Shown here: in pieces, positions 20,528-37,916 of the stretch
How positions within the stretch are numbered: position 1 is the first letter of the stretch
How the letters are laid out: each line of letters starts with the position of its first letter
Assembly (NCBI GenBank): GCA_048937405.1
Contig: JBHLNF010000001.1
Span: forward strand, 320,001 to 384,000
From: Promethearchaeota archaeon
GTDB taxonomy: Archaea > Asgardarchaeota > Lokiarchaeia > Sigyniarchaeales > SOKP01
Direction of reading: 5' to 3'
Length of the DNA stretch: 64,000 nt
Translations under genes and position numbers: made by a program
The notes under the pieces: generated by a model
What the model was told of the DNA's origin: nothing
Database searches by the model: none
Seen by the model: the letters and a program-made list of their open reading frames with translations, nothing else

Positions 20528-21931
20528 CAATGAAAGCAAAATAAAGCCCTTCTCTTTAGGGATGGGATGAATTTTGCTGTGAACATCATTAAATCATTCC
20601 AGTTTATCTTTTAAAATAGGTAAAATAATATACTGCTTATAATGCTTCGTACCAACATATTAGAATTGAACCCTTCCCCACACCAGAGGAAGATTCTTCA
20701 TACAATGTTGGTAAGATCTAGTGCCATCTGGAACCTAGGGAATTATACACGGCGACAAGCATTCTTTAATAAAGATACAAAAAGTCCATCTTATTCTCTT
20801 CAATGTAAGGAACTAAAGGATAATAATCTTTATAAATCGTTAGGATCTGCATATTCCCAGCAAATCTTAAAGAAATTGGACAAATCATGGCAGTCATTTT
20901 GGAATTCTTTAAAATCTGAGAATATTACACATAAGGTATCAATCCCTCACTATTTTAAGAATTATAAAACTAATCAAACCCTCCCTACATTATTGATTTG
21001 TCGAAATGATTGTTACCATATTGATCAGAATTATATTTATATTTCTTGTTCTAAGGATTTAAAGGAAGAATATAGACTTAAAGGACTTCTGAAAATAAGA
21101 TATAAAGGAATAAGAAAATGGAAGGGTGTGCAAAAGGTTATGGAGATTAAATATATTCCCTATCTTAAGAAATTTTATGCGTATCAGACTGAAGAGGTAG
21201 CTTCTACTCCCATAGACTTTAAAGAAGAGAATATTTGTTCTATTGATTTGGGAATTAAGCGATATCTTACCACCTGCATTAAAATCTCTGAAGATCTCTC
21301 TTTTATCTATGAATCAGAGCACATATTTCAACAATATCTCATTCTTTCAAGAAGAATAGCCTATTATCAAGCAAGAGCTAAAAAAGAGAATAACAAATAT
21401 ACTACTCATAGAATTAGAAGATTATATCTTAAAAGAAGACGAAAACTACATAACTATCTTAATAATATTTTGGCACATTTATTTCGGAAATTGAAGCACT
21501 ATCAGGTCTCAAAGATTGTAATCGGAGACTTACAAGGTATTAGAGATTCTCAAATTCCCTCGTATTATAAAAATAAGAAAAAGATCAATGAGATGATTCA
21601 AAACTTCTGGTCAGTTGATCTTTTTAAAAAAAAACTACAAAATAAATGTGAGGAGTTTGGAATTGACCTTGTGGAAATCGATGAAGCCTATACATCTTCT
21701 ACTTGTCCTATGTGTAATGAGAGAGTCAGTCCGAATGATAGAACTTTTAAATGTCCCCGCTGTGGGTATAAGCAAGATAGAGATGTAGTAGGAGGTATTA
21801 ATATTCTTAAGAAATATTATCATGATCATCATATTGATGATGTAAGGATAGAGAACTATCCTTTAGTGTCTACGATTCTCATTGAATCATAGGGACTATG
21901 AATCCATATCCTTTAGGGTATGGTAGTTCAA
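20528..21931 (+). mobile_element. Non-autonomous IS200/IS605-family (IS608-like ends) element
   Basis: TTAC at 20524-20527 before the left end; AAAG + hairpin CCCTTCTCTTTAGGGATGGG; right end GAAT + hairpin CCATATCCTTTAGGGTATGG, ending in TCAA; no tnpA. Confidence 0.88.
20642..21892 (+). CDS. tnpB: RNA-guided endonuclease TnpB
   Basis: SIDLG (RuvC-I), VIGDL (RuvC-II), EAYTSSTCPMC..FKCPRCG..DRDVVG (zinc finger + RuvC-III). Confidence 0.93.
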   Translation: MLRTNILELNPSPHQRKILHTMLVRSSAIWNLGNYTRRQAFFNKDTKSPSYSLQCKELKDNNLYKSLGSAYSQQILKKLDKSWQSFWNSLKSENITHKVSIPHYFKNYKTNQTLPTLLICRNDCYHIDQNYIYISCSKDLKEEYRLKGLLKIRYKGIRKWKGVQKVMEIKYIPYLKKFYAYQTEEVASTPIDFKEENICSIDLGIKRYLTTCIKISEDLSFIYESEHIFQQYLILSRRIAYYQARAKKENNKYTTHRIRRLYLKRRRKLHNYLNNILAHLFRKLKHYQVSKIVIGDLQGIRDSQIPSYYKNKKKINEMIQNFWSVDLFKKKLQNKCEEFGIDLVEIDEAYTSSTCPMCNERVSPNDRTFKCPRCGYKQDRDVVGGINILKKYYHDHHIDDVRIENYPLVSTILIES

Positions 21932-22230: not shown

Positions 22231-23472
22231 TCATAAATTTCTTTTCTCAGCTTTCATACGCTTTAGTTCTGCTTCAATCTCTTCGTCTGAAGTAAAAGTA
22301 CCCAGAATTCCTATATCAGTGATCTGTGTTGTTTCGAAATCAACACATTTGAATTTGTTATCAAATCTATTAACTAATACATTTAATAGTTTGACCTTGT
22401 TTCCCTCTCTAAAAACATCATTGAACTTATTAATATCCTCATCAAAAATGGTTACGGTCATAACTCCTGTGTCGTCTCTAATATCAATTTGTTGGAATAA
22501 TTCCTTTCCGTAAATGTCACACTCTCCCATATCGCCCCGTTTAACCACGATTCCTTCAATATGTGTTAACCAGTTAGAATAACGATACTTCTTTATCGCT
22601 TCAATGTTAGGGAGATCTACAATATCGTAATCATACTTCTTTATTTCCGTTCCCATCGTGCTTTCAAGTGTTGCTTGTTTTTTCCATTTTTTTCGCTTCA
22701 AGTTTGTTATTGTCACGATATCTCCTAATGTGAATGATTCTGTTAACCCTACTTTCTTATTCCAAAAGGTAACCTTAATAATTCCCGTGCTATCTGCAAT
22801 AATTACAATTCTCATTTGTCCCTTCAAGCCATCCTTTCTTTCAAACACCTTGATATCTTTTATATCCATTATACATACGGAAACAGTAACTAAATCGTTG
22901 TGATATTCCGTTTCTTCACCCGATTCAATGTGCCACACTTGAAATTCTTTTTGTTGGTAAATGGGATAATCCTTCTCCTTCATAACACTTAGATTTATTT
23001 GTATATCCCCATCATGTTCCAATTGTAATGACATCTCTTCATTTTTCCTACTTTTTACATTACATCCATTTATTTTAATGAGTAGATTGGGTCTTAAATT
23101 TCTCATTATCTCTGTTTGTTCGTTCCATAATACCACTTTCACACAACCTGTCTTGTCAAATATTGTGAATGTTCCTATCTTTCCCATCCATAAATCCCTC
23201 TTAAAGGAATTTAGTCTATGCAGAAAGCGTATTCTCCCCACAACAGTTATATCTTTCATTCCTAAAGTTAGTGAACTGATTTCCGTAATTTTTTTTGAAT
23301 TACTATGTGATATCCCAAACTCCCTTGCCAAGAGGAGTAACGAGGCTTTTGCTGATATTAGTCCTTTCAATTCTTCTTGTTTTTCTTTCACTTTTTCCCT
23401 TATTTCTGACAGACTAAGCCCCGTCTTGTATATAATCAAAGATTCCAAATTTTTATACTCCTTTTCTTTCAT
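22231..23472 (-). CDS. Replication protein A-like ssDNA-binding protein (three OB folds)
   Basis: N-terminal GLIS.KASLLLLAREFGI plus three D.TG...V..W/F OB-fold motifs. Confidence 0.88.
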   Translation of the reverse strand: MKEKEYKNLESLIIYKTGLSLSEIREKVKEKQEELKGLISAKASLLLLAREFGISHSNSKKITEISSLTLGMKDITVVGRIRFLHRLNSFKRDLWMGKIGTFTIFDKTGCVKVVLWNEQTEIMRNLRPNLLIKINGCNVKSRKNEEMSLQLEHDGDIQINLSVMKEKDYPIYQQKEFQVWHIESGEETEYHNDLVTVSVCIMDIKDIKVFERKDGLKGQMRIVIIADSTGIIKVTFWNKKVGLTESFTLGDIVTITNLKRKKWKKQATLESTMGTEIKKYDYDIVDLPNIEAIKKYRYSNWLTHIEGIVVKRGDMGECDIYGKELFQQIDIRDDTGVMTVTIFDEDINKFNDVFREGNKVKLLNVLVNRFDNKFKCVDFETTQITDIGILGTFTSDEEIEAELKRMKAEKRNL

Positions 23473-23533
23473 ACTCTTCTCCTAAATTTTTTTATAACTG
23501 AAATGTAACAATCAATTCTTATTTCTGCATTCT

Positions 23534-23878
23534 TTACACCTCAGCAAGATAATCAAAAGAATCAAGGATTTTATCTAATTTATTGAAAAATTTTTTTTTA
23601 AAATAGAAACGTGGCTTCTTGAATGCACATATCGAATGGAGTGTTATAAATTGAGTTCTTTCTGTTTTCCTATATAAGCGAAAACTGATAAAAAAAGTCA
23701 TTTCAGCGAGTTTATTGCATATTGGACATGTAGGGGAATTTATATAATTTCTTTTGTCTAAAACCACTTTTAATGTTTTTTTTCTTAGTAACATCTTGAA
23801 ATCATACCATCCTCCTTCTTTATTTTTACAAATACAGTTTCTCTTATTTTTCCTTATTTCTTCGCTGTTTGTGTTCAT
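23534..23878 (-). CDS. Hypothetical small zinc-binding protein
   Basis: CPIC...HSIC; co-oriented within the operon. Confidence 0.5.
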   Translation of the reverse strand: MNTNSEEIRKNKRNCICKNKEGGWYDFKMLLRKKTLKVVLDKRNYINSPTCPICNKLAEMTFFISFRLYRKTERTQFITLHSICAFKKPRFYFKKKFFNKLDKILDSFDYLAEV

Positions 23879-24800
23879 AAATCTCTTTCGATTTCTTAGT
23901 TTTTGCTATATTTTCCAAATCTGTACTTTGCATGTAAAAAATATCTTGAATTCCTAATTTGACACACTCTTTAGTAATTTTAGAAAGATTCTGTAATTCT
24001 GCAATTTTCCCTGCTTTCCACAGTAAATTCAAACCATATCTAATATCTTTTTTTCTATATGTTTCGTCGGAAATCAATCTAATTACGTCATTCGAGATTG
24101 CATCTTTTTTAAAGCTGAGTTCTGCCCTAAACTTTAAGATATCAAAAACCTGCTTTTTAGAATAATCACTAAAATTTATAATATTTCTTTGAAGTGTGCT
24201 TATTGTTCCTGAATCTAAATCATCTATACATGAGATATTTTGAGTAATTCCTATAATGGATATATGAGAGGGTTTATTGAAAGAATCGTCATTTAACCGA
24301 GTTAAAGAATGAAGAATATCTTTATTATTCTTAATGAGATGGTTGAACTCATCTAAAATAATGAGTAAATAAACATTATCTAACTCTGTAAACTCTCTTA
24401 GGAGATCTAAAAGTTCTGATGGGGCATAGCCCCTTTTAGTAAATTTTGGGTTAATTGAGGAAAGAATTGTCATTAATATTTTATAACCTGATTTTTTAAC
24501 CCGACAATTGATAAAAACAGAGTAAAGAAATCTCTCTCTCTTCTCTGCTTCTTTCCTAAGAAGACTTATAAAAAATTTTACCGTTGCCGTTTTACCCGTC
24601 CCAGAATTGCCTGTGATTAAGATATTTTTTGAAATCGCATTTCGATGTAATAAAATAGGTAAAAAATATTGTGCAAGAATAGATAATCCTTTTTCTCGAT
24701 AAGGAAGTTTATGAGGAACATAATCATTTTCTAATTTACTTTCATCCACGAAAATTGAATACTTATCATCATTATCTAATAAATTTGAGAATAGATCCAC
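23844..24800 (-). CDS. cdc6: Orc1/Cdc6-family AAA+ protein, apparently lacking the C-terminal winged helix
   Basis: YVPHKLPYRE, GNSGTGKT, INCR, IILDEF, DIRYGLNLL; only 318 aa. Confidence 0.85.
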   Translation of the reverse strand: MDLFSNLLDNDDKYSIFVDESKLENDYVPHKLPYREKGLSILAQYFLPILLHRNAISKNILITGNSGTGKTATVKFFISLLRKEAEKRERFLYSVFINCRVKKSGYKILMTILSSINPKFTKRGYAPSELLDLLREFTELDNVYLLIILDEFNHLIKNNKDILHSLTRLNDDSFNKPSHISIIGITQNISCIDDLDSGTISTLQRNIINFSDYSKKQVFDILKFRAELSFKKDAISNDVIRLISDETYRKKDIRYGLNLLWKAGKIAELQNLSKITKECVKLGIQDIFYMQSTDLENIAKTKKSKEIYEHKQRRNKEK

Positions 24801-25017
24801 TTTTTACAGCCCTCATTTAATAGTAGTTTTAACAATTTCTCTTCCTTTTTTTGAAACAAAAGCATTTGTCATTCCACTTAAACTTTCTATTTTTTAAAAT
24901 GACAATTTAAGAAAGTGAGAGAAAGGCAACATAGTAGAAATGACTAAAGCATAAGGGAAGTATTAGGATTTCTTTTCACGTCCCTTTCTCTCATGTTTTT
25001 TTCCCTTTCCCTGTTTT

Positions 25018-25389
25018 TCATAGTAGACTTATTGATTTAATCTTTTTTCCTCCCAATTCTAAAGTAATAATAGTAATCCTTTCCATCAAGTTCAATTCGA
25101 TATAATTCTTTTTTTTTTCTAAATCATCGCATATACTTTTTATAGCTGGATAATAATCAATGCTTTTATCAAAAGGAAATAACTGATGAATCGGATCTAA
25201 GGTTATTTTATAAATGTCCTCAATTGTATAGGCGAATTCATTGTTCTTTCTAATAAAATTGCTAATTATGTCTCTTTTCATTACGAATTCAAAACTCTCA
25301 AATAAAAGATCGAAGAATTTTTGCTCACTCATTATATTATCGTCCTTAATTTCGTTCATGAAGGTTCTCATCTGCCTTATTTTTTCCAA
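25018..25389 (-). CDS. Hypothetical protein
   Basis: 123 aa ORF co-oriented between radA and cdc6. Confidence 0.4.
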   Translation of the reverse strand: MEKIRQMRTFMNEIKDDNIMSEQKFFDLLFESFEFVMKRDIISNFIRKNNEFAYTIEDIYKITLDPIHQLFPFDKSIDYYPAIKSICDDLEKKKNYIELNLMERITIITLELGGKKIKSISLL

Positions 25390-25582
25390 ATCTTTTATTC
25401 CACATCATACCACAAAAAAAACCTAGAGTGAAATGTTTTAGTAATTCCTTATCTTTCGGTTTCAATTGGGATTCTCCTTGATCTGAGCCGTCTATGATTT
25501 TTCTCATCTCTTCTTCAAAATCCAATTCTTTTCCCATAACCCAATCACTTAAAATCTATTTTTCATTTTTCAATTTTTTAAA

Positions 25583-26662
25583 TTAAAAGACTAATTTTTC
25601 TGTTTCCTCATCTTCAAATATTTCCTTAGTTGTTTCAATATATTCATCTGTAATCCCTTTTCGATTGATATAAAAGCTTACTTCCCTTTCGGGAAGCCCT
25701 GAGTCTTTTAACATCTTTGCATATCGTTTTGTAGGTTGCTTACCTCTACGAAGGTAAATTCGATATGGTGTATAATGAGCCATTACATTTCCTCCTGACC
25801 ACTTGATTTGATTTTTCAATGAACCATTCCCATAACTTCCTACTTGATTTGTATAGATAACCATAACATCAAACAATAGGGTAAGCTTCTTCAGAGATTC
25901 AATCATGTGAGCTAAAATTTGCTGTCTTTTGATATTGTCCCTTGTTCCTTTTATATATTCCGCTCTGAACTTTGCGATAATACTATCTACAATAATTAAT
26001 TTGACTGGTTTTGTTCTAAACTCATCATAGATGAATTCATTAATAATTAATTCCTGTTGGAATGAGTTTAACGGTTTGATAACTTCAATTCGCTCTAAAA
26101 CTTTATTCCCATCGATACCATTTTCCTTTGCAATTTGAAGTATCCTTTCTGGTCTAAATCCTAGTTCAGTATCTATATAAATTACATCCCCGTCTAATCC
26201 ACCTTTCTCTATAGGTTGTGTGGCATACACACATAATGTATGAGCAATCTGAGTTTTTCCTGATGTACTTTTCCCAAAAAACTCAACTACACTATTTTTA
26301 TGAATTCCTCCTACTAGTTTTCCTTTTCGTTGGTCATAATTTAGAAATAAGGAATTTAACCGTTTGCTTCCCGTAGTGAGTCTGCAAACTTCATTTCTAT
26401 TCTTGTTTGTAGTAGTAGCTTTTTCCCGAAAACTAATTCTTACATTTAAAGCATCATATACCTCCTCAACTAATAATCTAGCATCTAATTCTGATATACG
26501 GAGTATAGCCATAAGCTGAGATACTTTTATCATAGAAAGTTGTTCTACTGTCTCAATTCCTGCTTTTTTTAACTTAGTTTTCTTGTCGTTAGAAATTTTT
26601 AGCTGAGTGATTTTTATAGATTTTACAATTTCTACATTTTGATTCTGTTCACCTTGAGTCAT
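25583..26662 (-). CDS. radA: RadA/Rad51-family recombinase
   Basis: N-terminal HhH (KLKKAGIETVE), LTTGS, FGKSTSGKTQ, YIDTE..FRPERI, LIIVDS, RQQ, TNQV, GGNVMAH. Confidence 0.92.
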   Translation of the reverse strand: MTQGEQNQNVEIVKSIKITQLKISNDKKTKLKKAGIETVEQLSMIKVSQLMAILRISELDARLLVEEVYDALNVRISFREKATTTNKNRNEVCRLTTGSKRLNSLFLNYDQRKGKLVGGIHKNSVVEFFGKSTSGKTQIAHTLCVYATQPIEKGGLDGDVIYIDTELGFRPERILQIAKENGIDGNKVLERIEVIKPLNSFQQELIINEFIYDEFRTKPVKLIIVDSIIAKFRAEYIKGTRDNIKRQQILAHMIESLKKLTLLFDVMVIYTNQVGSYGNGSLKNQIKWSGGNVMAHYTPYRIYLRRGKQPTKRYAKMLKDSGLPEREVSFYINRKGITDEYIETTKEIFEDEETEKLVF

Positions 26663-27119
26663 TTTTAAGACCTTATCCTGTTTTCTCTTTTTTAAATTAT
26701 CATTTAAATCTGCCGACAAAAAATTTGTCAATGTAATAATTACAGATATATTAATATTTAAATGTTTTACTTTTGTGTTGATTTATAATGAATAATTATT
26801 TTACTATCGTGTTAAATATTGATAAACTTATAATTATATAAATAAAACTAAAAAATTATAGTTCTTTTATTTATATTTCTATAATATTTTAATAATAAAA
26901 TTAATTAAAAAATGAGAAAAATTATGTTATTTAATATAAATCAATGTTCTATATTCCATTATTATATTTATATGTTTAAGAAAATGCTCTAAATATAATT
27001 AAAAATATTCAAAAATTCTGTAATTTACCTATAAATCAAATATTTTTAAAATAAAATATTATTATATTATCCTACTTTAATATTAATAATATTTACGAAA
27101 AAAATGGTAATATGTAAAA

Positions 27120-27401
27120 ATGAAAGATGTAGTTTCTTTAACATTTAGCGGAAAAACATTAGGATTCCCTATTCAAAGTGGATTTTTAGAAGAATTAGGA
27201 TTGAAGCGTGGTAATTGGGTTGAAGTAGAAATTTTCATTCCATATCAAGGAAAATCCTCATTTATAATTACTCGAAGGTTAAAACCTATTGGAAGTTCAC
27301 TAGGAGTAACTATTCGTAAATATATAGTTGATGAATTAGAGCTTAGTAAGGGAACCAATTTTCAAATAGATGTTAGAAAACCAAAAACTCCTTCAGTTTA
27401 A
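27120..27401 (+). CDS. Duplicated AbrB/SpoVT-type DNA-binding protein
   Basis: Two G.S/TLG..I......LGL..G repeats; divergent from the radA operon. Confidence 0.75.
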   Translation: MKDVVSLTFSGKTLGFPIQSGFLEELGLKRGNWVEVEIFIPYQGKSSFIITRRLKPIGSSLGVTIRKYIVDELELSKGTNFQIDVRKPKTPSV

Positions 27402-29033: not shown

Positions 29034-30716
29034 TTATATTCTATTTATAATGGTATTGCACACATCACAACGAATAAGATCTCCAATTATCTCATTTCCG
29101 CAAAAATGACAATACTTCCCAGTATCTTCTGTTATATTTTGGGTTTCTGGTTTTTCTGGTTCATGGTCTACTATTTCAATTATATTTTCCTGACTAGTCC
29201 TATTTTGTATTCTATCTAATATTTTTTTATTATTTTGCTCAATTTCTTCTTCTGCTAACCATTCTCGTTTTATAAACGGTACTTTTAACGCAAATGGTTT
29301 TCCTATTGAATTTACTCGTATCATGCATTTACCTACACCTAATAAAGATAAAAATTTCCTCTCTTTATCTTCAAAATTTAGTAGATCCTGTAAATAGTCT
29401 TTTTGCATGTGATTTTGAAAGGACACTAAAATTCCGCAATTTGCAAGAATCTCAGGTGATACCGCAGGACGTGTCGCTAAAGAGATTAAGCATTCTCCCG
29501 TACCTCTTAAAAGTAATGCAATATCTTCTATGTAAGAAGAGATTGTGGATCGTTGTGTGGTTGACTGCGATGCAAAATACTGGGCATCTTCTATTATTGT
29601 AATATGTCTAATTCCTTTGTATTCTTTACTTCCCATTTCGATATTTATATCCCATAAATACTTGAAAAGCATATTTAAGAAAAATAGGGTATCTTCTTTT
29701 TCCCCTCCAATTTTTATAATTCCACTCACATCAAGTAAGATATTGTGCTTAAAAATTTCTTTTACATCTAATCCCATCTTCGTCTCAAAACTGTGCTTTA
29801 GTGTACCTAAGCTGTACCGTCGTATTCTATTGGTTACTGCGGTTACACTACTTTTAAAGGTAGGATCTCTAGTTTCAGCATAGATTTCTTCGTAATATTT
29901 CTCTGAATCTTCATAAAAAGCTTTCCAATTTCTCTTTACGGGATCGTCACAAACTCTTTTTAATATATCTGTAAAAACCCTTTCCATTTGAGGAGTATAT
30001 TCAACACCTTCAAATAACCCTCCACTTCTGAAAATTTGGAATACCCGTTCTGCATGTACTTCACTATCTTGTCCTTCAGGATCGAAAATATTAATGGCAA
30101 AATTTTTTCCAACTATAAACACCAGTAAGTTAGGAATTTTCTTTTGTAAATAATGATATTCTCCTTTAAATTCTGCCAATAGAAACGGTGTAGTATACTT
30201 TTTGGTATAATTGATTAGGAAATTTTGGAAAAAATTACTTTTTCCTGAACCTGTAATTCCAGTTATAAACATGTGACGGGCGAGGTCTTGTAATCTGATA
30301 TGATAACTATATTTCTTTTTATTTCCGTATAATACCGTTCCTACATTGATTTCTCCTTTTTTTGCCAAATTCTTTGTTGGATAACTTAATTTAATTAGTT
30401 CTTCTTTTTTCACATATTTGAAGGATTTTACGCTTATTACTAGCGAAATCCAAAAGATTGTTTGATTTAGGGTTATTAACGATAGTAGAAGATCATGCTT
30501 AAGGTATTCTGAATTAATATAAAACTCTAAATTCGAAAGATAATAGATTAAAAGTAGTACAATAAATAAAATGAATATTATATTAAAGATCCTATTTGAG
30601 ATTGTATTTCTTTTTCTAATAATGGTATTTTTAAACGTTCTTTTTCTAAAAAAATACCCAACTATAGAAAAAAAAATAAATCCTATACATAAAATAAATT
30701 CTATAACCAATGACAT
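29034..30716 (-). CDS. Membrane-anchored HerA/VirB4/FtsK-like ATPase (DUF87 type)
   Basis: 3 N-terminal TMs, RHMFITGITGSGKS, EFKGEY, IIEDAQ, LRGTG, C-terminal CHFC..CDVC. Confidence 0.85.
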   Translation of the reverse strand: MSLVIEFILCIGFIFFSIVGYFFRKRTFKNTIIRKRNTISNRIFNIIFILFIVLLLIYYLSNLEFYINSEYLKHDLLLSLITLNQTIFWISLVISVKSFKYVKKEELIKLSYPTKNLAKKGEINVGTVLYGNKKKYSYHIRLQDLARHMFITGITGSGKSNFFQNFLINYTKKYTTPFLLAEFKGEYHYLQKKIPNLLVFIVGKNFAINIFDPEGQDSEVHAERVFQIFRSGGLFEGVEYTPQMERVFTDILKRVCDDPVKRNWKAFYEDSEKYYEEIYAETRDPTFKSSVTAVTNRIRRYSLGTLKHSFETKMGLDVKEIFKHNILLDVSGIIKIGGEKEDTLFFLNMLFKYLWDINIEMGSKEYKGIRHITIIEDAQYFASQSTTQRSTISSYIEDIALLLRGTGECLISLATRPAVSPEILANCGILVSFQNHMQKDYLQDLLNFEDKERKFLSLLGVGKCMIRVNSIGKPFALKVPFIKREWLAEEEIEQNNKKILDRIQNRTSQENIIEIVDHEPEKPETQNITEDTGKYCHFCGNEIIGDLIRCDVCNTIINRI

Positions 30717-31032
30717 GATATTTTCTCTTATTTTTAAATTGAATTCTCTATTTATAATAAAATAAATTTCTGGTTGTGTGAGATCCTCTATACGTGAGAG
30801 TTTTTTAGGGTAAAAATTTCTTATTCATTTGCAGGGAATTTAGAAATCAATATAATTTATCAAGTCTTAAATTTTACTTTGCTTTTTAGTCATTTCTTTA
30901 CTCTCGCAAATTATATTCATATTTTCTATTTTTTGAACTGCTTACTTATTTTTCGGTAGATTTTTTTCGTAAATGAATTAAAATAAAAAAAAGGGTATTA
31001 GGATATCTGAAATTTGGGGTTTTATTTCAGAT

Positions 31033-31215
31033 TTAGGTAAACAAATATGCTTCTTCTTTAGAATGCGGTAAGCTAAGAATTCCAACATCATCAATCTCAA
31101 CATCACCACACCTAAGACATTCCCATAAATATACAACTACATTAACCAGTCTAATTATATGTAATCGTGATTCCCCTGTACATTTTTTACATGTTTTATA
31201 TATTACCATGTGCAT
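31033..31215 (-). CDS. Small zinc-ribbon protein (paralog of 34937-35155)
   Basis: CKKC...WECLRCG. Confidence 0.65.
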   Translation of the reverse strand: MHMVIYKTCKKCTGESRLHIIRLVNVVVYLWECLRCGDVEIDDVGILSLPHSKEEAYLFT

Positions 31216-31423
31216 TACTTCTGTTTTTTTGTGAATTGTCTTCTAAATTGTTATATCGTATATCGTTTGAAATCAGTTCTACACATTCAACAAATTCCTT
31301 AAAATTATCAGGAGTATCTTCTATCACTTTCTTGGTGGCGATTAAAATTCTCCATAGATTACTTTTCTCTGTGGTTTGTAGAAACATATTATCTAATTCT
31401 TCTAAATATAACTGATTGAACAT
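31196..31423 (-). CDS. Hypothetical protein
   Basis: 75 aa ORF preceded by AGGTGA. Confidence 0.5.
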   Translation of the reverse strand: MFNQLYLEELDNMFLQTTEKSNLWRILIATKKVIEDTPDNFKEFVECVELISNDIRYNNLEDNSQKNRSNAHGNI

Positions 31424-31495
31424 TTAAATAGGTCACCTTTTTGGATTATTTTAGTAGGCTAAACGGGAAAAATAGGAAAAAGAAATTTAGTTAAT

Positions 31496-33610
31496 TTAAA
31501 GACTCAATAATTCTTTTTCGAGGTCTTGTTTATTTTTTTTTAGTAATAATCTATTTTTTCGTTTTGAATTTTGAACTTGTACGAATTCTATTATATCTTT
31601 GAGAATTGTAGGTTTGAAACTTAGGCTTACATCCTTAGAATATATTACACACTTGACATTTTCAACATCGATATTAAGCATTTTAGACAGAATATAAGCA
31701 TATCCCACAACTTGAGGTAATCCACGAATTAAATCTCCATATCTTGGTTTATATTCTATAACAATTAACTCTGACGTAATATTATCAAATCCAAGTAGAT
31801 CAATATGCCCTATTCTTCCTTTTTGCTCATCGTATATCGGTATTTCCATCCCAATTATTTGTTCCAATTTTATACTTTGTCTTTGAATCAGTTCATGTCT
31901 AGGATTCACATATTCGGTGCTTTTTGCAATTCTATTAGCTATTTCTTTTAATTTTAATGATAGTTTTCCTTTTTGATCTTTAAGTATCTTATTTTTTGAT
32001 ATTAATGGAAATATCAATTGTTCTTCTATTATTGCTGTCTTTAATTTTTCCTCAGCTAATCCCTTAATCTTTAGCTCCGAACCTCTAAATTTAGGATGCT
32101 TAAACAACTCGACAGGATATTTATCATTAATAAAGTTTTCAAAGCTGTTTTGTAGTTTTTGTCTAATATTAGTATTTTCAAAGTTCTTTAGATGGTCTTT
32201 ATTAAATTTAAATTCATAAATAAGTGATCCTGTCTTAATTAATTTTGATGTTTCTTTTTCTTTATCTATTGTCTCATCTATAATTTCAATTGCATTGATA
32301 TACTGTTGTCTATCTATTATCTTATTTTTTAAAGCGTTGTTAATATTTCTCTTTACTTTTAGCCATTTATAAAGGTAATAATCCTTCTTCTCTAATTCGC
32401 TAATAAATTCTCCTGCCCCTAATGAATACTTATAAAATTTCATTATTTTATTTAAGAAATCATCGATACTCAATTCAAGTATTTTGAAAAGAGAATATAC
32501 AGTTTTTATTTGTGCTCTATTCGTCTTATTATATAATATTTCTAATGTTTTTTCAAAAGTTTCTCTTGAATATTTGAAATCTGCAAAAATTACATTCAAA
32601 TTCTCTTGAACAGTTTTCCTTATTAAGCTTATTAACAAATATGTAACCTTTTTAGAAAGATTTACAGCTTTACATACTTTTTTATAGCTATATTGTAAAT
32701 CGGAATTCCTTCTTCGTATTCTTTTTTTTAGCATTAAATAAACTATACTTATTGCTAGATATTGAGGGTAAAAATTATCATAAAAACCATTTTTAAATAA
32801 CTTAGCTATATTAATTCCATATTGTTCCAGAATTGAGATAAGTTTAAGTCTTTTTTCATATCTAGTTGTTGCTCGGTTTGTAAAACATTTAATTTTATTT
32901 CGAGTTAATAAGGTTAATGTTTTTTTAATCTCGTCTTGAAATTTTTGTTCATTAATATTTAATTCAAATTTATCGATTAAAATATCTGTGTAAATTTTTG
33001 AATATTTTACTGTTTTTTCAATGTATTCTTTTGCATCAATTTTAATAAATTCTTTTTGAAAATTATTTAAAACTGAATTAAATACAACATAATTACCATC
33101 TATTTTAAGAAATTTTGCAAATGTTGTCTGCTTTACCATTATATCATAGTGAAGTCTTATTATGGAATATATTATAGATCTTGCTAAATTAATAAGATCT
33201 TTATCTTTCCATTCAATTGATGTATGTATAGTTTCCTTATCATTTTCATATTTTTTCTGAATCTTTTTGATGTACTCCAAATATAGTTTTTTGAATTCTG
33301 GTTCATTTACACATTCGAAGATATCATTTTTAGGTAAAATTTCTAACTGAAATTCAATTTCTTCTTGGATTCTTTGCAAAAATTGAGTATCAAGTATTTT
33401 TATAATTGTTGGACTTTTTCTAATAGTAAAAGAGTTTTTACATTGTTTGCATTTTAAGAGTCTATATCCAATTTTTGTTAAGTTTAATGGTTTTAACGGT
33501 TTGTATATTTGTGCAGTATTACAACATGGCGTTATCACTTCTATTTTCCTTATAATATCTTCTTTTTGCGATGCTGCAGATGGTAAATACTTATCTAATG
33601 TAGTATTCAT
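31496..33610 (-). CDS. Large protein with N-terminal zinc ribbon and C-terminal PD-(D/E)XK nuclease
   Basis: PCC..CKQC; EIPI..GHIDLL..VIEYK..QVVGYA. Confidence 0.75.
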   Translation of the reverse strand: MNTTLDKYLPSAASQKEDIIRKIEVITPCCNTAQIYKPLKPLNLTKIGYRLLKCKQCKNSFTIRKSPTIIKILDTQFLQRIQEEIEFQLEILPKNDIFECVNEPEFKKLYLEYIKKIQKKYENDKETIHTSIEWKDKDLINLARSIIYSIIRLHYDIMVKQTTFAKFLKIDGNYVVFNSVLNNFQKEFIKIDAKEYIEKTVKYSKIYTDILIDKFELNINEQKFQDEIKKTLTLLTRNKIKCFTNRATTRYEKRLKLISILEQYGINIAKLFKNGFYDNFYPQYLAISIVYLMLKKRIRRRNSDLQYSYKKVCKAVNLSKKVTYLLISLIRKTVQENLNVIFADFKYSRETFEKTLEILYNKTNRAQIKTVYSLFKILELSIDDFLNKIMKFYKYSLGAGEFISELEKKDYYLYKWLKVKRNINNALKNKIIDRQQYINAIEIIDETIDKEKETSKLIKTGSLIYEFKFNKDHLKNFENTNIRQKLQNSFENFINDKYPVELFKHPKFRGSELKIKGLAEEKLKTAIIEEQLIFPLISKNKILKDQKGKLSLKLKEIANRIAKSTEYVNPRHELIQRQSIKLEQIIGMEIPIYDEQKGRIGHIDLLGFDNITSELIVIEYKPRYGDLIRGLPQVVGYAYILSKMLNIDVENVKCVIYSKDVSLSFKPTILKDIIEFVQVQNSKRKNRLLLKKNKQDLEKELLSL

Positions 33611-33968
33611 AGGTTAAGTCTCCCCTTATAGATATTATATTTCTCATTAGGAAATTTATAATTATTTGATTAGAACTTATCCATTGTTTTAATTTCTTGT
33701 TAAAAAAGGAATCGTTTAATTCCATCCTATTTTTATCCATAGAACAAATTTTCACTTTTTCATATCACCCTTGACTTGTCTTTAATGATTCTCATTAAAT
33801 TTAAATAAAAAAAGTAAGTTAGTTTTTTAAATTTCAAATAGCTTGAATTTAGAAGTTCACGTCATAACCATTTTTTCAATAAACATACCTGTAGCAATTC
33901 TTTAAATTGCCTTCACTTGAACTTTCTCAAATATGCTGTAATCTATCTTCTAAATTCATATTCTTCAC

Positions 33969-34331
33969 TTAATTAATCATGGCTGTTTCGGTAAGTATTT
34001 CATTCTTTTTTAGTACCCATGTCTCGATTTCTAATGATTGGTTTTGTTCTTTTGTAGGTTTCCATGATTTAACGGTACTTTTTGGTATCCATGCTTCTTT
34101 CTCATCAAATTTAATGAATAAAGCTTTTTCAGTTTCTTTTGTTATCATTCCTGTTATTTTTATGGTCGGTTTTGGTTTACCATTATGAATGTATGTATTT
34201 GTTTTTCGGCTTGATGTTTTTTTTGGCTGTTTTTTAGGATTATCGTTTTCGAAGCATGTATCAATTACATATTCTTTAATTGCTTCCCTTACCAGTTTTT
34301 TTATTATTTTAATATCATCCTGAGTAAGCAT
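33969..34331 (-). CDS. Small OB/SH3-like hypothetical protein of mobile-element type
   Basis: ETEKALFI....AWIPKS..I..W motif; GAGGTGA RBS. Confidence 0.65.
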   Translation of the reverse strand: MLTQDDIKIIKKLVREAIKEYVIDTCFENDNPKKQPKKTSSRKTNTYIHNGKPKPTIKITGMITKETEKALFIKFDEKEAWIPKSTVKSWKPTKEQNQSLEIETWVLKKNEILTETAMIN

Positions 34332-34586
34332 TTTTCAAAATTCACCTCTTATGAATAAGAATTTTTATCCCTATGGTTTGTGGTTAGATTTTGTGTGTTT
34401 TTGGGTAAAGTTGTCCCCTAAAAATTCATATAGGAGATCTCACACAAACAGAAATCACCGTTATCTCCTATTATTTCTGCTCTAGCGACAGCACATATCT
34501 TAAATTGAAATTTACAACACATACCCTATTTTTAATTTGACCACGTTTTTTTGTTAGATTTGCTTACAATTAAAATGATAAAAAAA

Positions 34587-34862
34587 TTAATTTGAAGAAT
34601 TATAATAGAGAGCTAAATTTAAGTTAAGAACTCGTATGTAGGATCTCATCCCTAACACAAATTTTTCTATATAATCCTTTTCTAAAATTGCCAAGTCTTT
34701 TTTACACCATTTTTGCTCGAATTCTAAAAGGAATTTTTCTAATTCTTCAAGGAACTGACAATGAGTACAGTTTTTCTTTTTATGAAGGAAAAAATTCACA
34801 GTATTAAAATTTAGATGGTCTATAAGGTATTCTTTCTTTTCTCTATACTTTGCATTTGACAT
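34587..34862 (-). CDS. Hypothetical H..CxxC protein (paralog of 35358-35672)
   Basis: FN..H..CTHCQFLEEL..KW..KDYIE..MRSYIRVLN. Confidence 0.7.
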   Translation of the reverse strand: MSNAKYREKKEYLIDHLNFNTVNFFLHKKKNCTHCQFLEELEKFLLEFEQKWCKKDLAILEKDYIEKFVLGMRSYIRVLNLNLALYYNSSN

Positions 34863-34936
34863 TTTTTTCTCATCTTCTTATAAGTCTAAAAAAAAAGGGG
34901 ATTTGGGGTGATTTAGAATTTTAAACCTATTCCAAA

Positions 34937-35155
34937 CTATGTACTATTCTTGCAGAACAATCCAATTTTATATGGACTTGGTTCTAAATCCCAATCTTCT
35001 AGCGGTATAATTGACATTGATTTATGGTCAATATATCCACATGAAACGCATTCCCATACTTCAATTATATTTTTGTATAATCGAAGTGTGTAACGCTTTA
35101 ATTGTCCGTCTTCTTCTGTACACGAACTTTTCGTACAAGGCTTTGTAACACCCAT
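34937..35155 (-). CDS. Small zinc-ribbon protein (paralog of 31033-31215)
   Basis: KPCTKSSC...WECVSCG; AAGGTG RBS. Confidence 0.7.
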   Translation of the reverse strand: MGVTKPCTKSSCTEEDGQLKRYTLRLYKNIIEVWECVSCGYIDHKSMSIIPLEDWDLEPSPYKIGLFCKNST

Positions 35156-35357
35156 ACTTTACACCTTTCTTCTGTTTATTGTGGTTAGATATGTGTTGTC
35201 GCTAAGTCAGAAATATTTACTAGCTTATCTCTTGTCTTTCTCTGCCCTTGCAACAACACATACCATCATATAGGTTGATGTAAGAGATTACAACACATAC
35301 CATATTTTTATTCTGAAGAGGTTCTTTATTTTTTAGTAGATTACTGGAAAGAAGAAG

Positions 35358-35672
35358 TTAAAAAAGAGATTTGGCTGACTTCGATTTCCTAAAAGAATAC
35401 TTAATGTTGAGAATTCTTATAAAAGCTCTCATACATTGTGCTACATATTCAACATAATCTTTTAACTTAATATCTAAGCCATATTCCATTTCTTCTTCGG
35501 TATATTCCTTCTCAAGCCACTTTCGTGCTTCCTTTATGATGGAAACATCAAGGTCTTGTAAGAAATTACAATAGACACAACTTTCGTCTGGTCTGTGATC
35601 ACCTTTTAAATGATGAACCGCAGTAAACGGGTTGAAGTCTATTAGATTTTCAACTTCTTGTAAAGCTTCCAT
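35358..35672 (-). CDS. Hypothetical H..CxxC protein (paralog of 34587-34862)
   Basis: FN..H..CVYCNFLQDL..KW..KDYVE..MRAFIRILN; GAGGTGA RBS. Confidence 0.7.
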   Translation of the reverse strand: MEALQEVENLIDFNPFTAVHHLKGDHRPDESCVYCNFLQDLDVSIIKEARKWLEKEYTEEEMEYGLDIKLKDYVEYVAQCMRAFIRILNIKYSFRKSKSAKSLF

Positions 35673-35780
35673 ACCATCACCTCTATGCTATGTGTTGTTG
35701 GAAGAGCAGAAAATTTTCATCGTATCTTGCGGTGGTCGGTTCAAGCCGACTTTTATTATTCTTTTTTTATTCCTCTTTAC

Positions 35781-36782
35781 TCATTCATGTAGGATTTTCA
35801 TTTCAGATGGAGTATAATTATTATTAACCATTCTTTTCAATACCTCCACATCTTTTAGCTTATATTTTCTCTGCGTGGTTTTAATTGTCCATATTTTCTT
35901 ACTGTGTAAATCTGCATTCTCTATTTTGCAGATATATCTAGGTCTTTTACATATCGGACAATTATCAGTTATCTGAGTTTTGTAGGTCTTTACAATTCTG
36001 AATTTACTCTGATGGAGATATCCAAACAAATTATAACTGTTTTTTACTCCTGAGCTATCTTTCCATAAGGCAATTTTGCTAAGGATATAAAAAATCGTAT
36101 AATACACATTATTTCGTCGTGGCAAATGATTTCTATAAGTTGTGTTAGGGTATTTTTCCCGAAATTCAGAATTATTCATAAGATACCCAAATCCTATAAC
36201 GTGGATATGAACGTTAAGCATTTTTTCAATAGTTCTATCTTTTTCCGTACATTTACAGAAGTATACCTTTTCATTACATTGTTTACAAACACTACTCCAT
36301 AGATGTAAAAATATAATTCCTCCTAGCACTCCCATATCTTTTAGCATTGGATATACGATTTTCTTCTTAAATTTAAGATATTTTTGATAGGTCTCAAAAG
36401 TGTCTCGTCTAATGTGAAATATAATGGAAAAATGCATGATTTTCCCAATACCAATACCGTTTGCATAGCAAATCCTTCGAAATTCCTTTAGTCTATCATT
36501 TAATTTTCTAGCTTTAACTGAACATGCGGTTATAAAACACTTTTCACAGTCCAACTTGTTACAATGTTGATAGATTGATTTTTTCGAGGTAATATCCTGT
36601 TCGCATTGTAATTCATACCGTTTCTTATTGCAATTGTTCCTGTATGTTCCCTGTGATCCCGCAGGTATCCAGTTGTAGCATTTCTCAAACTTTAAATTAG
36701 CAATCTGTTCAACCTTAATGGCGGTTTTTCTGCTAATTTTATTTAATGAAGTATTATAGGTAATCTGTTTTATCTTCGACAT
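35781..36782 (-). CDS. HUH endonuclease (rolling-circle Rep-like) with zinc-binding motifs
   Basis: Motif I-like HFSII, HUH motif NVHIHVIGFG, motif III-like YILSK; CxxxxCxxC upstream and CPIC downstream. Confidence 0.72.
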   Translation of the reverse strand: MSKIKQITYNTSLNKISRKTAIKVEQIANLKFEKCYNWIPAGSQGTYRNNCNKKRYELQCEQDITSKKSIYQHCNKLDCEKCFITACSVKARKLNDRLKEFRRICYANGIGIGKIMHFSIIFHIRRDTFETYQKYLKFKKKIVYPMLKDMGVLGGIIFLHLWSSVCKQCNEKVYFCKCTEKDRTIEKMLNVHIHVIGFGYLMNNSEFREKYPNTTYRNHLPRRNNVYYTIFYILSKIALWKDSSGVKNSYNLFGYLHQSKFRIVKTYKTQITDNCPICKRPRYICKIENADLHSKKIWTIKTTQRKYKLKDVEVLKRMVNNNYTPSEMKILHE

Positions 36783-36864
36783 ACGGTTTTAAACTTTTTT
36801 AATTTTAAATATAATATAAATCATGAATATTTAAAGCCCTATATTTTTCATTCTGGCTATTCTC

Positions 36865-37002
36865 TGTAATACAATTAAGCTAATCGTAGTACAATTTAGG
36901 TATTCGTAATACAATTCAATATATTTTGTAATACAATTTGATTTATTTTGTAATACAAAATTTCCTTTTGTACTACAAATCAGCTTTCCTATGTAATACA
37001 AT
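36865..37002. promoter_or_regulatory. Array of seven GTA-N-TACAA sites with 20-23 bp period (iteron/operator-like)
   Basis: Cores at 36866, 36886, 36906, 36928, 36950, 36970, 36993, directly upstream of the HUH gene. Confidence 0.85.
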
Positions 37003-37082
37003 TGAAAAAAAAGTGAACTTTGCTCGAAGTTAGAAATAGTTACCATCTTTAGATTAGTTTTTATAGCTCTTTATACAATTTT

Positions 37083-37916
37083 ATGCAAAGTAAATCATTA
37101 AAATATACAAAAATGAAAGAAAAAAATATAACATATATTATAATTCCTGCGATGGTTTTCGGGTTTATTTTTATTTCTTCCCTATTTTACTTTAATTGGG
37201 GGTATTTCTTAGATACTTATTTGACAACTGATGGATCTCTACTTATTATACTTGTAATTCTTGTGAGAACATTTATAGTTGGGGCAATTGGTATTCTATT
37301 ATATGCAAAATGGATTAACCAAGAATCACAGTATTTTTCAGACATTCGTTTTTTGTTTTCTTTGTTTTTTCTTGGTTTGGTGTTTGGAAAATTAGCCGAA
37401 TTGTTTTATTACTTCATGTACTACCATTTTTCAGAGTCGTTATTTATTATTTCACTTCAAGCTCGTTTTCTTTGGATGATACTTAACTTAAGCCCTCTTT
37501 TCTTTGTCACATTCGAAATATTATTGTACTATCTTTCTGAAAATTTTCAAACTTTTACATTTCTAAAAAAAGAGAACTCCATAATAATTAAAAGAGTCCT
37601 TATCCTAATAATTATGGTAATCGAAGCAATATTAATTTTCATATCCTCTAATGTTTTTGCCATTTCCCTGCTCTATCCGATTGTTACCATTTCCTCATTG
37701 TTGTTAGTTTCATGGCTTTTTTATCTTGCCCATAGATATAAACGATTAAATGACGCAAAACCATATATTTTATTTATCGGTTTTTCCATTTATGCCCTAA
37801 ATTCAATAGTTCGCTTTGTTTTCTTGCTTATTTTTGGTACAACTCCCCTTTATGTTATAATAACGGAAAGTTTGGATCTCATCGTGTCATTTCTTATTTT
37901 ATATGGTATTATGTAG
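37083..37916 (+). CDS. Polytopic membrane protein (7-8 TM)
   Basis: Alternating hydrophobic segments. Confidence 0.75.
   Translation: MQSKSLKYTKMKEKNITYIIIPAMVFGFIFISSLFYFNWGYFLDTYLTTDGSLLIILVILVRTFIVGAIGILLYAKWINQESQYFSDIRFLFSLFFLGLVFGKLAELFYYFMYYHFSESLFIISLQARFLWMILNLSPLFFVTFEILLYYLSENFQTFTFLKKENSIIIKRVLILIIMVIEAILIFISSNVFAISLLYPIVTISSLLLVSWLFYLAHRYKRLNDAKPYILFIGFSIYALNSIVRFVFLLIFGTTPLYVIITESLDLIVSFLILYGIM

Follow-up and report, generated by a model that had tools for sequence, protein, structure and literature searches.

Three adjacent gene modules of an Asgard archaeal element are each closed by a conserved, co-varying long-range inverted repeat

The window analyzed here is a 64-kb stretch of DNA (G000:C7:320001-384000; about 28% G+C; positions below are counted from its first letter) from a Loki-type Asgard genome that totals 4.47 Mb in 29 contigs. 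It carries an element in which three adjacent gene modules, C, B and A in gene direction, lie between a gene for a Rep-like protein and one for a HerA/FtsK-like ATPase. Each module is closed by its own conserved, co-varying long-range inverted repeat. A preliminary description of this DNA had noted three adjacent segments bracketed in this way, and both a repeat search and a scan against shuffled sequence recovered all three in the same places. The clamps look more like a means by which a single-stranded form of the element folds back on itself than like the integron-like mobile cassettes that the description had proposed. Its view that no described system has this layout still holds: the three clamps match none that has been reported.

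Module A is closed by two helices in series. The outer one, helix 1, joins 30766-30792 to 34429-34455, with 24 of 27 positions complementary, and the inner one, helix 2, joins 30806-30846 to 34333-34373 (32 of 41); the gaps between them on the two sides measure 13 nt and 55 nt. Module B (34472..35215, minus strand) has a single pair, formed by its 5′ arm at 35187-35215 and its 3′ arm at 34472-34500, and module C has another, between 35238-35266 and 35685-35713. In both of these, 25 of 29 positions are complementary. When 27-nt windows between 29000 and 38000 were scanned for pairs with at least 23 complementary positions, exactly three emerged, those of A, B and C, and 40 dinucleotide-shuffled controls yielded none. 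The same pairs rank at the top of the whole 64 kb and are the only such pairs there of normal G+C. Each arm also matches its own partner better than a neighboring one, as first described: own-partner complementarity is 86%, compared to 79% for the left arm of B with the right arm of C, a small margin for these two modules with which RNAduplex energies concur.

The modules share a common architecture. Their genes are all on the minus strand, co-oriented with the Rep-like gene, and a ribosome-binding (Shine-Dalgarno, SD) site and ATG lie inside each 5′ arm by 12 nt in C, 44 nt in B and 97 nt in A; both features had been seen correctly at the outset. Junctions between modules consist of an arm ending in CAGAAAT, a spacer of 16-22 nt and an arm beginning with ATTTCTG. 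Palindromy at the junctions is confined to these 7-nt cores; the arms themselves stand at opposite ends of a module, and no compact palindromic site is formed. The flanks of the segments are not direct repeats, and there are no target-site duplications. Modules B and C each hold three copies of the core CAACACATA, two of them direct in the tail and one inverted in the 5′ arm, and the short stretches that precede the arms look paralogous (AAGATAC, GAGATAA and GAGATAA). No Rfam family matched anywhere in 30500-37200 at E-values up to 1. A bulge-helix-bulge site or intron, defined by two 3-nt bulges on opposite strands with a 4-bp helix between them, was considered and set aside, as the folds give symmetric internal loops (3x3, 1x1) rather than staggered bulges.

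The same three brackets are found, in the same order, in G210, a metagenome-assembled genome of a Promethearchaeota archaeon from the same genus (isolate H3B.172). Identity between the two loci is 86-100% in the arms, about 80% in the coding sequences, about 72% in the tails without their arms and 56-64% in the spacers, making the arms the best conserved non-coding parts. The 5′ leader of A is 95-100% identical. The two spacers, C/B (35216..35237; 22 nt) and B/A (34456..34471; 16 nt), are 64% and 56% identical, respectively. Both contain TTATCTC in the window, as had been pointed out, but the motif is lost in G210.

More distant comparisons show that the arms change while remaining complementary. 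In L016 (G172:C37), where Rep is 43% identical to that of the window, a bracket occupies the same place as that of module A, in the spacer between the Rep and A120-like genes and in the one between the A704-like and HerA genes. Its outer helix (TTTCTGTTTTTGTG.GAC...) is complementary at 24 of 30 positions, a score reached by none of 200 shuffles, and its inner helix of 22 bp continues across the SD GAGGG. In sequence-based MAFFT columns, the window and L016 differ by double compensatory changes, three in helix 1 and five in helix 2, and three mismatches of the window are pairs in L016. Within the window, the arms of B and C differ at four positions, each of which is altered on both arms. Co-variation of the arms, claimed from the window alone, is thus borne out by comparison. 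Because an AT-rich helix of 23-40 nt changes its sequence yet stays complementary, we conclude that the arms are under selection to remain complementary in a single strand. Calling the segments self-closing when folded as a single strand is therefore fair, since the compensatory changes keep the arms complementary.

The single strand could be RNA or DNA. The reading that we rank first, and hold only tentatively, is that leader-tail pairing in the operon RNA of the rep-to-HerA row closes each module and covers the SD of its first gene. The repeats themselves, with their conservation, their co-variation and their reach over the SD, are established by the sequences; what we infer is that the strand is RNA and what its duplex does. 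The non-coding leader of each module would pair with that module's own non-coding tail, closing it as a stem-loop. In A, in three lineages, and in C, the predicted pairing extends from the outer arm over the SD and comes as close as about 5 nt to the start codon. A transcript long enough to include the tail would then fold back, shutting off translation initiation of the module. Also or instead, the duplex of 27-40 bp may be cut by a double-strand-specific RNase, which would separate and stabilize the module RNAs. A candidate for such an enzyme is available, as the host encodes an RNase III family protein (G000:C20:79445-79765, a 243-aa frame scoring above the Pfam cut-off).

Predicted pairing at the ribosome-binding sites is consistent with this proposal. 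In the 5′ leader of A (34333..34455, minus strand), the helix-1 strand at 34429-34455 is followed by a local hairpin and then by the helix-2 strand at 34333-34373, which crosses the SD GAGGTG and stops some 5 nt short of the ATG. Predicted pairing between the SD of a module's first gene and the tail of that module has a P of 0.72-0.98 in A (window, G210 and L016) and C (window and G210); for C, the values are 0.86-0.98. An anti-SD, ACCTCT, lies in the tail of C (35238..35357, minus strand), where it is the sole block in its part of the tail that is conserved between the window and G210; the tail also has an inner GGTATGTGTTGT copy and, at 35238-35266, the 3′ arm. Pairing between distant parts of one message has precedents in the interplay of 5′ and 3′ untranslated regions in haloarchaea (PMC2636863) and in the regulation of hok mRNA (PMC9841398).

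Several observations weigh against an RNA clamp. In A (window, G210, L016 and L084) and in B, runs of seven or eight T separate the last open reading frame from the 3′ strands. Such runs are typical archaeal termination signals, so transcription may often stop before it reaches the 3′ strand. The SD of B is barely covered (P of 0.2-0.33), and SD-pairing controls with shuffled tails were noisy, with a maximum of up to 1.0. In the sense strand, G-U is not in excess over A-C (10 compared to 7), a count without strand bias that cannot separate RNA from DNA, and sense and antisense folds are equal in energy. The folds form no bulge-helix-bulge motif, and no RNA run is listed among the sequencing runs that contain the locus DNA. 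Finally, pairing across 3.7 kb inside one mRNA is unusual.

Some of these features would also suit a DNA strand. The possibility that we place a close second is that the same clamps act in putative single-stranded DNA produced by rolling-circle replication or transfer, each module forming a stem-loop. Just before the first gene, the stems could then restore a double-stranded promoter or priming site, in the manner of the Frpo-type single-strand promoters, and they could also compact and protect the strand. The absence of a G-U strand bias fits this proposal, as do the T-runs between the open reading frames and the 3′ strands, which would give a layout of stem, genes, terminator and partner strand. 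A promoter would be expected in the 60 nt that precede the ATG, which helix 2 covers; the stems of B and C have no clear promoter-like element. Much of the row could also serve a single-stranded stage. Its Rep is probably of the HUH type, and a conserved hairpin with a CNNGAA loop lies some 25 nt from the first arm; the HerA/FtsK ATPase is pump-like, A704 joins a TFB-like region to a single-strand nuclease domain resembling Cas4/MGME1/Exo5, and elsewhere the island encodes an RPA-like OB-fold protein, RadA and Cdc6. Against it, the copy in the window is chromosomal, no free circle was seen among the contigs, and clamps 0.5-3.7 kb apart have no precedent, Frpo and sso being local hairpins. A wider version, slightly less probable, holds that the clamps are devices of the single-stranded stage of a rolling-circle element and that the modules could be expressed, primed, or excised and added singly beside the Rep origin hairpin, with the TFB-like/Cas4-like nuclease, RPA and RadA acting on the strand; the stem could then be a duplex promoter, a priming site or a hairpin recognized by Rep. 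Clamps at work in single-stranded DNA would represent a principle new to rolling-circle or transferred elements.

In the Rep-like protein (35781..36782, minus strand; 333 aa), several Cys clusters, H192-I-H194 and Y232 are invariant across 16 homologues that span 28-80% identity, and the HUH metal motif and catalytic Tyr motif appear in the expected order. Searches of Pfam, PHROG and PDB sequences with the protein gave no match. Its neighbors in the ESM Atlas are clusters with Rep_1, Zn_Tnp_IS91 and IS91 Y2_Tnp (TM 0.42-0.51). The AlphaFold model (pLDDT 87) finds HUH nucleases as its top structural matches (VIA), with Z of only 3.4-4.7, and aligns weakly to SIRV1 ORF119, RepB of pMV158, parvovirus NS1, CRESS Reps and Helitron. 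Given the invariant motifs, the weak fold scores and the lack of a sequence-family match, an HUH Rep is likely but not proven. The protein is probably a rolling-circle initiator of the Rep_1/IS91-like type, assigned by its motifs rather than by a family match. The HUH assignment of the preliminary description is thus plausible on the motifs.

Directly 3′ of rep lies a hairpin (35734..35751, minus strand) with the stem GTCGG/CCGAC and a 6-nt loop of the form CNNGAA, followed by the conserved GCAAGATACG. Comparison of the window, G210, G198 and L016 shows that the stem is kept while the loop varies. The stem is GTCGG/CCGAC or GTCGA/TCGAC, and the loops are CTTGAA, CAAGAA, CATGAA and CGAGAA in four lineages (window, L015, L010 and L016). 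A scan for sigma-70 promoters and terminators, which is not informative for an archaeon, placed a terminator-like match at the hairpin on the plus strand only. The hairpin is a candidate Rep origin or nick hairpin, or a terminator. Guesses at a nick site, from CTTG-like motifs in the spacers or the hairpin loop, were dropped for inconsistent conservation.

The preliminary description had favored cassettes of an integron-like kind. A segment would leave as a circle or single strand, its arms and spacer forming one hairpin site, and shuffling at TTTCTG/CAGAAA would perhaps be carried out by Rep. We regard this as unlikely, although parts of the picture stand: the pairing, the variable content of the Rep-HerA interval and a breakpoint in one relative. 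The geometry of the CAGAAAT-spacer-ATTTCTG junctions fits, as do the paralogous-looking spacers before the arms and the resemblance of Rep to IS91 and Rep_1 proteins. Of 399 Asgard genomes, 10 contain a Rep homologue, and these 10 belong to a single family; a dozen metagenome proteins are also homologous. The row of Rep, HerA-like ATPase and a protein of 206-210 aa is conserved among the relatives, and variable genes are concentrated in the interval between Rep and HerA. It holds A120-like and A704-like genes in L016, an A704-like gene alone in L026, a 93-aa B91-like protein in L034, and a 79-aa protein, once or twice, in L027 and L025; in L035, an 89-aa protein follows Rep and the contig ends before any HerA gene. 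Relatives with other genes in the interval have no arms: clamps are absent from the more distant homologous loci L025, L026, L027, L034 and L035.

Loci that contain A704-like genes tell a similar story. In L083, L086-L088 and L026, no significant leader-tail complementarity was found, and L084 and L085 keep the 3′ tail only, without a bracket; a 23-mer of the A tail, ATGAATAAGAAATTTTTACCCTA, is identical in these two. Because A120-like and A704-like genes recur in the Rep-HerA intervals of relatives, segment A holds core genes of the family, and its bracket has stayed in place across the deep divergence that separates L016 from the window. A cargo role for segment A is not borne out. In L025 (1947-3594 of an ENA metagenome scaffold), an Arf/Ras-like GTPase gene stands between two near-identical direct copies of the 79/90-aa gene, both of which include about 130 nt upstream of it, an arrangement that looks like a single-crossover insertion.

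One relative does have a shorter array. G198 (L010 = G198:C120:5169-8408), from the same genus, is a decayed copy in which rep is mostly deleted and the start of A120 is broken by stop codons; its A leader is 81% identical to that of the window, and no similarity continues past it. B and C are missing, the A arm TTTCTGTTTGTCTGAGATCC follows immediately on the Rep-end hairpin and GGAAGATACAGAAA, and the breakpoint falls at the TTTCTG core. This junction could reflect a site-specific event, slippage between 6-7-nt direct repeats at the stem foot, or a state before B and C were present. As evidence for cassettes it is tempered by the fact that the copy is a remnant and that a deletion between such short repeats needs no enzyme.

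Other observations speak against movement. The number, order and orientation of the segments are unchanged in G210 and in Logan contigs from four runs of three studies, as well as in contigs found by exact proteins; arrays of variable number or order, which the cassette proposal had led one to expect, were not encountered, the only close relative having the same three segments and the distant loci lacking the repeats. Neither circular, empty-site nor inverted junctions were seen in the contigs, and no inversion or excision joint passed the listing rule in those of the runs; this search covered assembled contigs only, from which rare inversions could escape. The spacers and TTATCTC are unconserved. 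BLAST of all six arm regions against the 4.47-Mb genome returned the locus itself only. A search pattern for the B and C tails, two TATGTGTTG copies plus CAGA, had G210 as its sole relevant match among 185,579 species genomes (L052 being unrelated), matched only unrelated tandem repeats in the JGI metagenomes and gave 0 matches in the IMG/VR viral collection. Apart from G210, then, arms and tails occur nowhere else in these collections, and a dispersal of the arms as terminal inverted repeats, which would have spoken for a known transposase family, was not seen in this genome or in public ones.

A few contigs depart from the common arrangement. In runs X3 and X5, both of one study, contigs join 36820, just upstream of rep, to 34575, at the end of B91, with 25 other letters between. 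The joint could be a 2.2-kb circle or duplication of rep, C and B, or a relative with another gene order. In run X4, from an independent study, contigs match the window until 30734 or from 30752, both at the outer edge of the A 3′ arm, which suggests relatives with a different neighbor there.

Less probable still is that the arms are double-stranded sites, such as operators or centromere- or clt-like sites, for module proteins such as B91 and C104, with both arms changing together to fit the protein. The three CAACACATA core copies per B or C module, the H..CxxC motif shared by B91 and C104, the position of arms upstream of successive gene starts, and the persistence of certain arm mismatches in both the window and G210 would all agree with this. 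Helix 2 argues otherwise, being an AT-rich stretch of 23-40 nt that shares no motif between the window and L016 and is complementary in both; it is too long and too free of sequence for a protein site. The A arms are moreover of a different type, although A75, the paralogue of these proteins in module A, lacks the Cys/His part, and the small module proteins matched no DNA-binding fold or family.

Non-autonomous transposons bounded by terminal inverted repeats, or invertible DNA switched by a recombinase, are very improbable readings of the segments: inverted repeats of 27-29 nt with shared ends do bracket them, and tandem site-specific insertions are conceivable, but there are no further copies or target-site duplications, the island has no transposase or invertase, all copies and contigs show one orientation, A encloses core genes, and the inner helix and SD cover would have no role.

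Module C opens with its 5′ arm (35685..35713, minus strand; sense TTTTCTGCTCTTCCAACAACACATAGCAT), which lies 12 nt upstream of the ATG and is 86% identical in G210. The arm is followed by C104 (35358..35672, minus strand), a small protein with the H..CxxC motif. Module B encodes a 72-aa Zn-ribbon protein (34937-35155, minus strand), whose gene is hypervariable (43% nucleotide identity with G210), and B91 (34587-34862, minus strand; 91 aa), after which come a T7 run and a tail with an inner GGTATGTGTTGT copy and the 3′ arm. B91 and C104 are paralogues that also include A75 among their relatives. They are only 31% identical to each other, and the duplication is therefore older than the split of these elements, a point that would also suit cassettes. 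A family search for the two returned the window and G210 only; the L034 protein is a probable relative, by motif only. B and C are old paralogous duplicates of a small-gene unit and share its design; they are lineage-specific and were presumably added or lost at the TTTCTG core.

Module A begins with A120 (33969..34331, minus strand; 120 aa), which is core to the family. Its C-terminal domain resembles phrog_8389, and its homologue in L016 has 140 aa. A704 (31496..33610, minus strand; 704 aa) has a Zn ribbon, a helical region like that of TFB/TFIIB and, at the C-terminus, a PD-(D/E)xK nuclease domain of the Cas4/MGME1/Exo5-like type, in which E589, D604 and K621 are invariant; the match to the PDDEXK_1/Cas4 profile is weak. 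The model of A704 has a pLDDT of 86. Foldseek matches its helical region to TFB, TFIIB, Brf2 and Rrn7, with weak E-values and high probabilities (0.98 for TFB 1ais_B), and its nuclease domain to MGME1/Cas4 with probabilities of 0.95-1.0 and E-values of only 0.02-0.1. A word-index search with residues 1-460, dominated by low-complexity words, returned the query alone. Downstream are A75 (31196-31423, minus strand), a truncated paralogue of B91 and C104, and A60zn (31033-31215, minus strand), a 60-aa Zn-ribbon paralogue of the B Zn-ribbon gene. The tail of A (30766..31032, minus strand) carries a T8 run, the 3′ strand of helix 2 (30806-30846) and the 3′ arm of helix 1 (30766-30792).

A704 differs sharply between close relatives. 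It is only 34% identical in the window and G210 (L015 10021-12222), while the flanks are 75-88% identical, with sharp borders at 31497 and 33666; an X6 contig also departs from the window at 31484. The pattern looks like allele replacement or fast diversification of a single gene, and the B Zn-ribbon gene looks alike. On JGI contig L083, the A704-like gene is followed after about 550 bp by an RNase III gene, and a small gene on the opposite strand lies between them.

In gene direction, the full row is the Rep-like gene (333 aa), the hairpin, C, B, A, the HerA/FtsK-like ATPase gene and genes for proteins of 104 and 210 aa. The ATPase (29034..30716, minus strand; 560 aa), membrane-anchored and of the DUF87 type, is the downstream neighbor throughout the family, as judged by synteny. 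The three-clamp locus sits inside a block of about 24 kb (about 22.2-46.4 kb) that the window shares with G210:C82 at 73-84% nucleotide identity; the match stops at the block edges, where the flanks differ. Block genes encode RPA-like, Cdc6-like and RadA proteins and a DpnII-type nuclease, with no integrase among them. The RPA-like protein (three OB folds), the Cdc6/Orc1-like protein (AAA+ and lid domains) and RadA lie at 22231-27401 and are 76-81% identical to those of G210. In agreement with the preliminary description, transposase and recombinase families are absent among open reading frames between 10 and 50 kb, except for a TnpB gene (OrfB_IS605, with a Cas12f-like TNB domain) at 20642-21892, just beyond the shared island. 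No TnpA was seen beside it.

The locus defines a family of Asgard elements, with Rep, a TFB-like nuclease and a membrane HerA/FtsK ATPase, that is missing from Pfam and from virus catalogues. If the clamps act in RNA, these would be the first coding modules of an archaeal mobile element built like an rRNA operon, each with its own co-varying stem that masks a ribosome-binding site. They would offer a way to insulate and time genes in Asgard archaea, whose RNA biology bears on the origin of eukaryotes. Either way, three stems and a candidate Rep origin hairpin make a compact, testable system.

Known systems resemble the locus in part. Like integron attC cassettes, it is a co-oriented array with imperfect inverted repeats, short conserved cores, variable inner parts and single-strand folding; however, the attC arms are adjacent at the 3′ end of a cassette (R''-L''..L'-R') and are served by the tyrosine recombinase IntI and an attI site, whereas the arms here are at opposite ends, there is no integrase or evidence of movement, and one bracket holds core genes. 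With IS200/IS605, IS91/ISCR and Helitrons it shares an HUH-like enzyme, an IS91-type N-terminal zinc domain (by its Atlas neighbors) and, presumably, recognition of single-strand hairpins. Those transposons have subterminal local hairpins, no terminal inverted repeats and many copies, in contrast to single-copy arms and a Rep that belongs to a conserved, replicon-like Rep-HerA row. The Frpo/ssi promoters of conjugative plasmids use intrastrand pairing in transferred single-stranded DNA to rebuild a duplex before early genes, as is proposed here for a DNA strand, but they are bacterial local stem-loops of about 300 nt, and the partners in this archaeon are kilobases apart.

By analogy, the nearest counterparts seem to be hok-type fold-back inhibition and the processing stems of rRNA operons. 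The hok fbi/tac pairing of plasmid R1 and the fold-back inhibition of IS10 are likewise borne by elements, and in them the end of the transcript masks the leader, giving a closed, inert full-length RNA; hok, though, is about 0.4 kb long, encodes a membrane toxin and is paired with an antisense RNA, whereas the modules here are 0.5-3.7 kb long, encode hydrophilic proteins, have no antisense RNA that was seen and stand three in a row. In rRNA operons, processing stems bracket the 16S and 23S rRNA, and these are handled by RNase III in bacteria and by bulge-helix-bulge motifs and EndA in archaea. The locus differs in that it encloses protein-coding modules of a mobile element, has no bulge-helix-bulge and has T-runs before its 3′ strands, and cleavage is putative. 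It shares with them a row, here presumably co-transcribed, in which every segment has its own long-range repeat, short spacers, and arms that co-vary, here over 0.5-3.7 kb.

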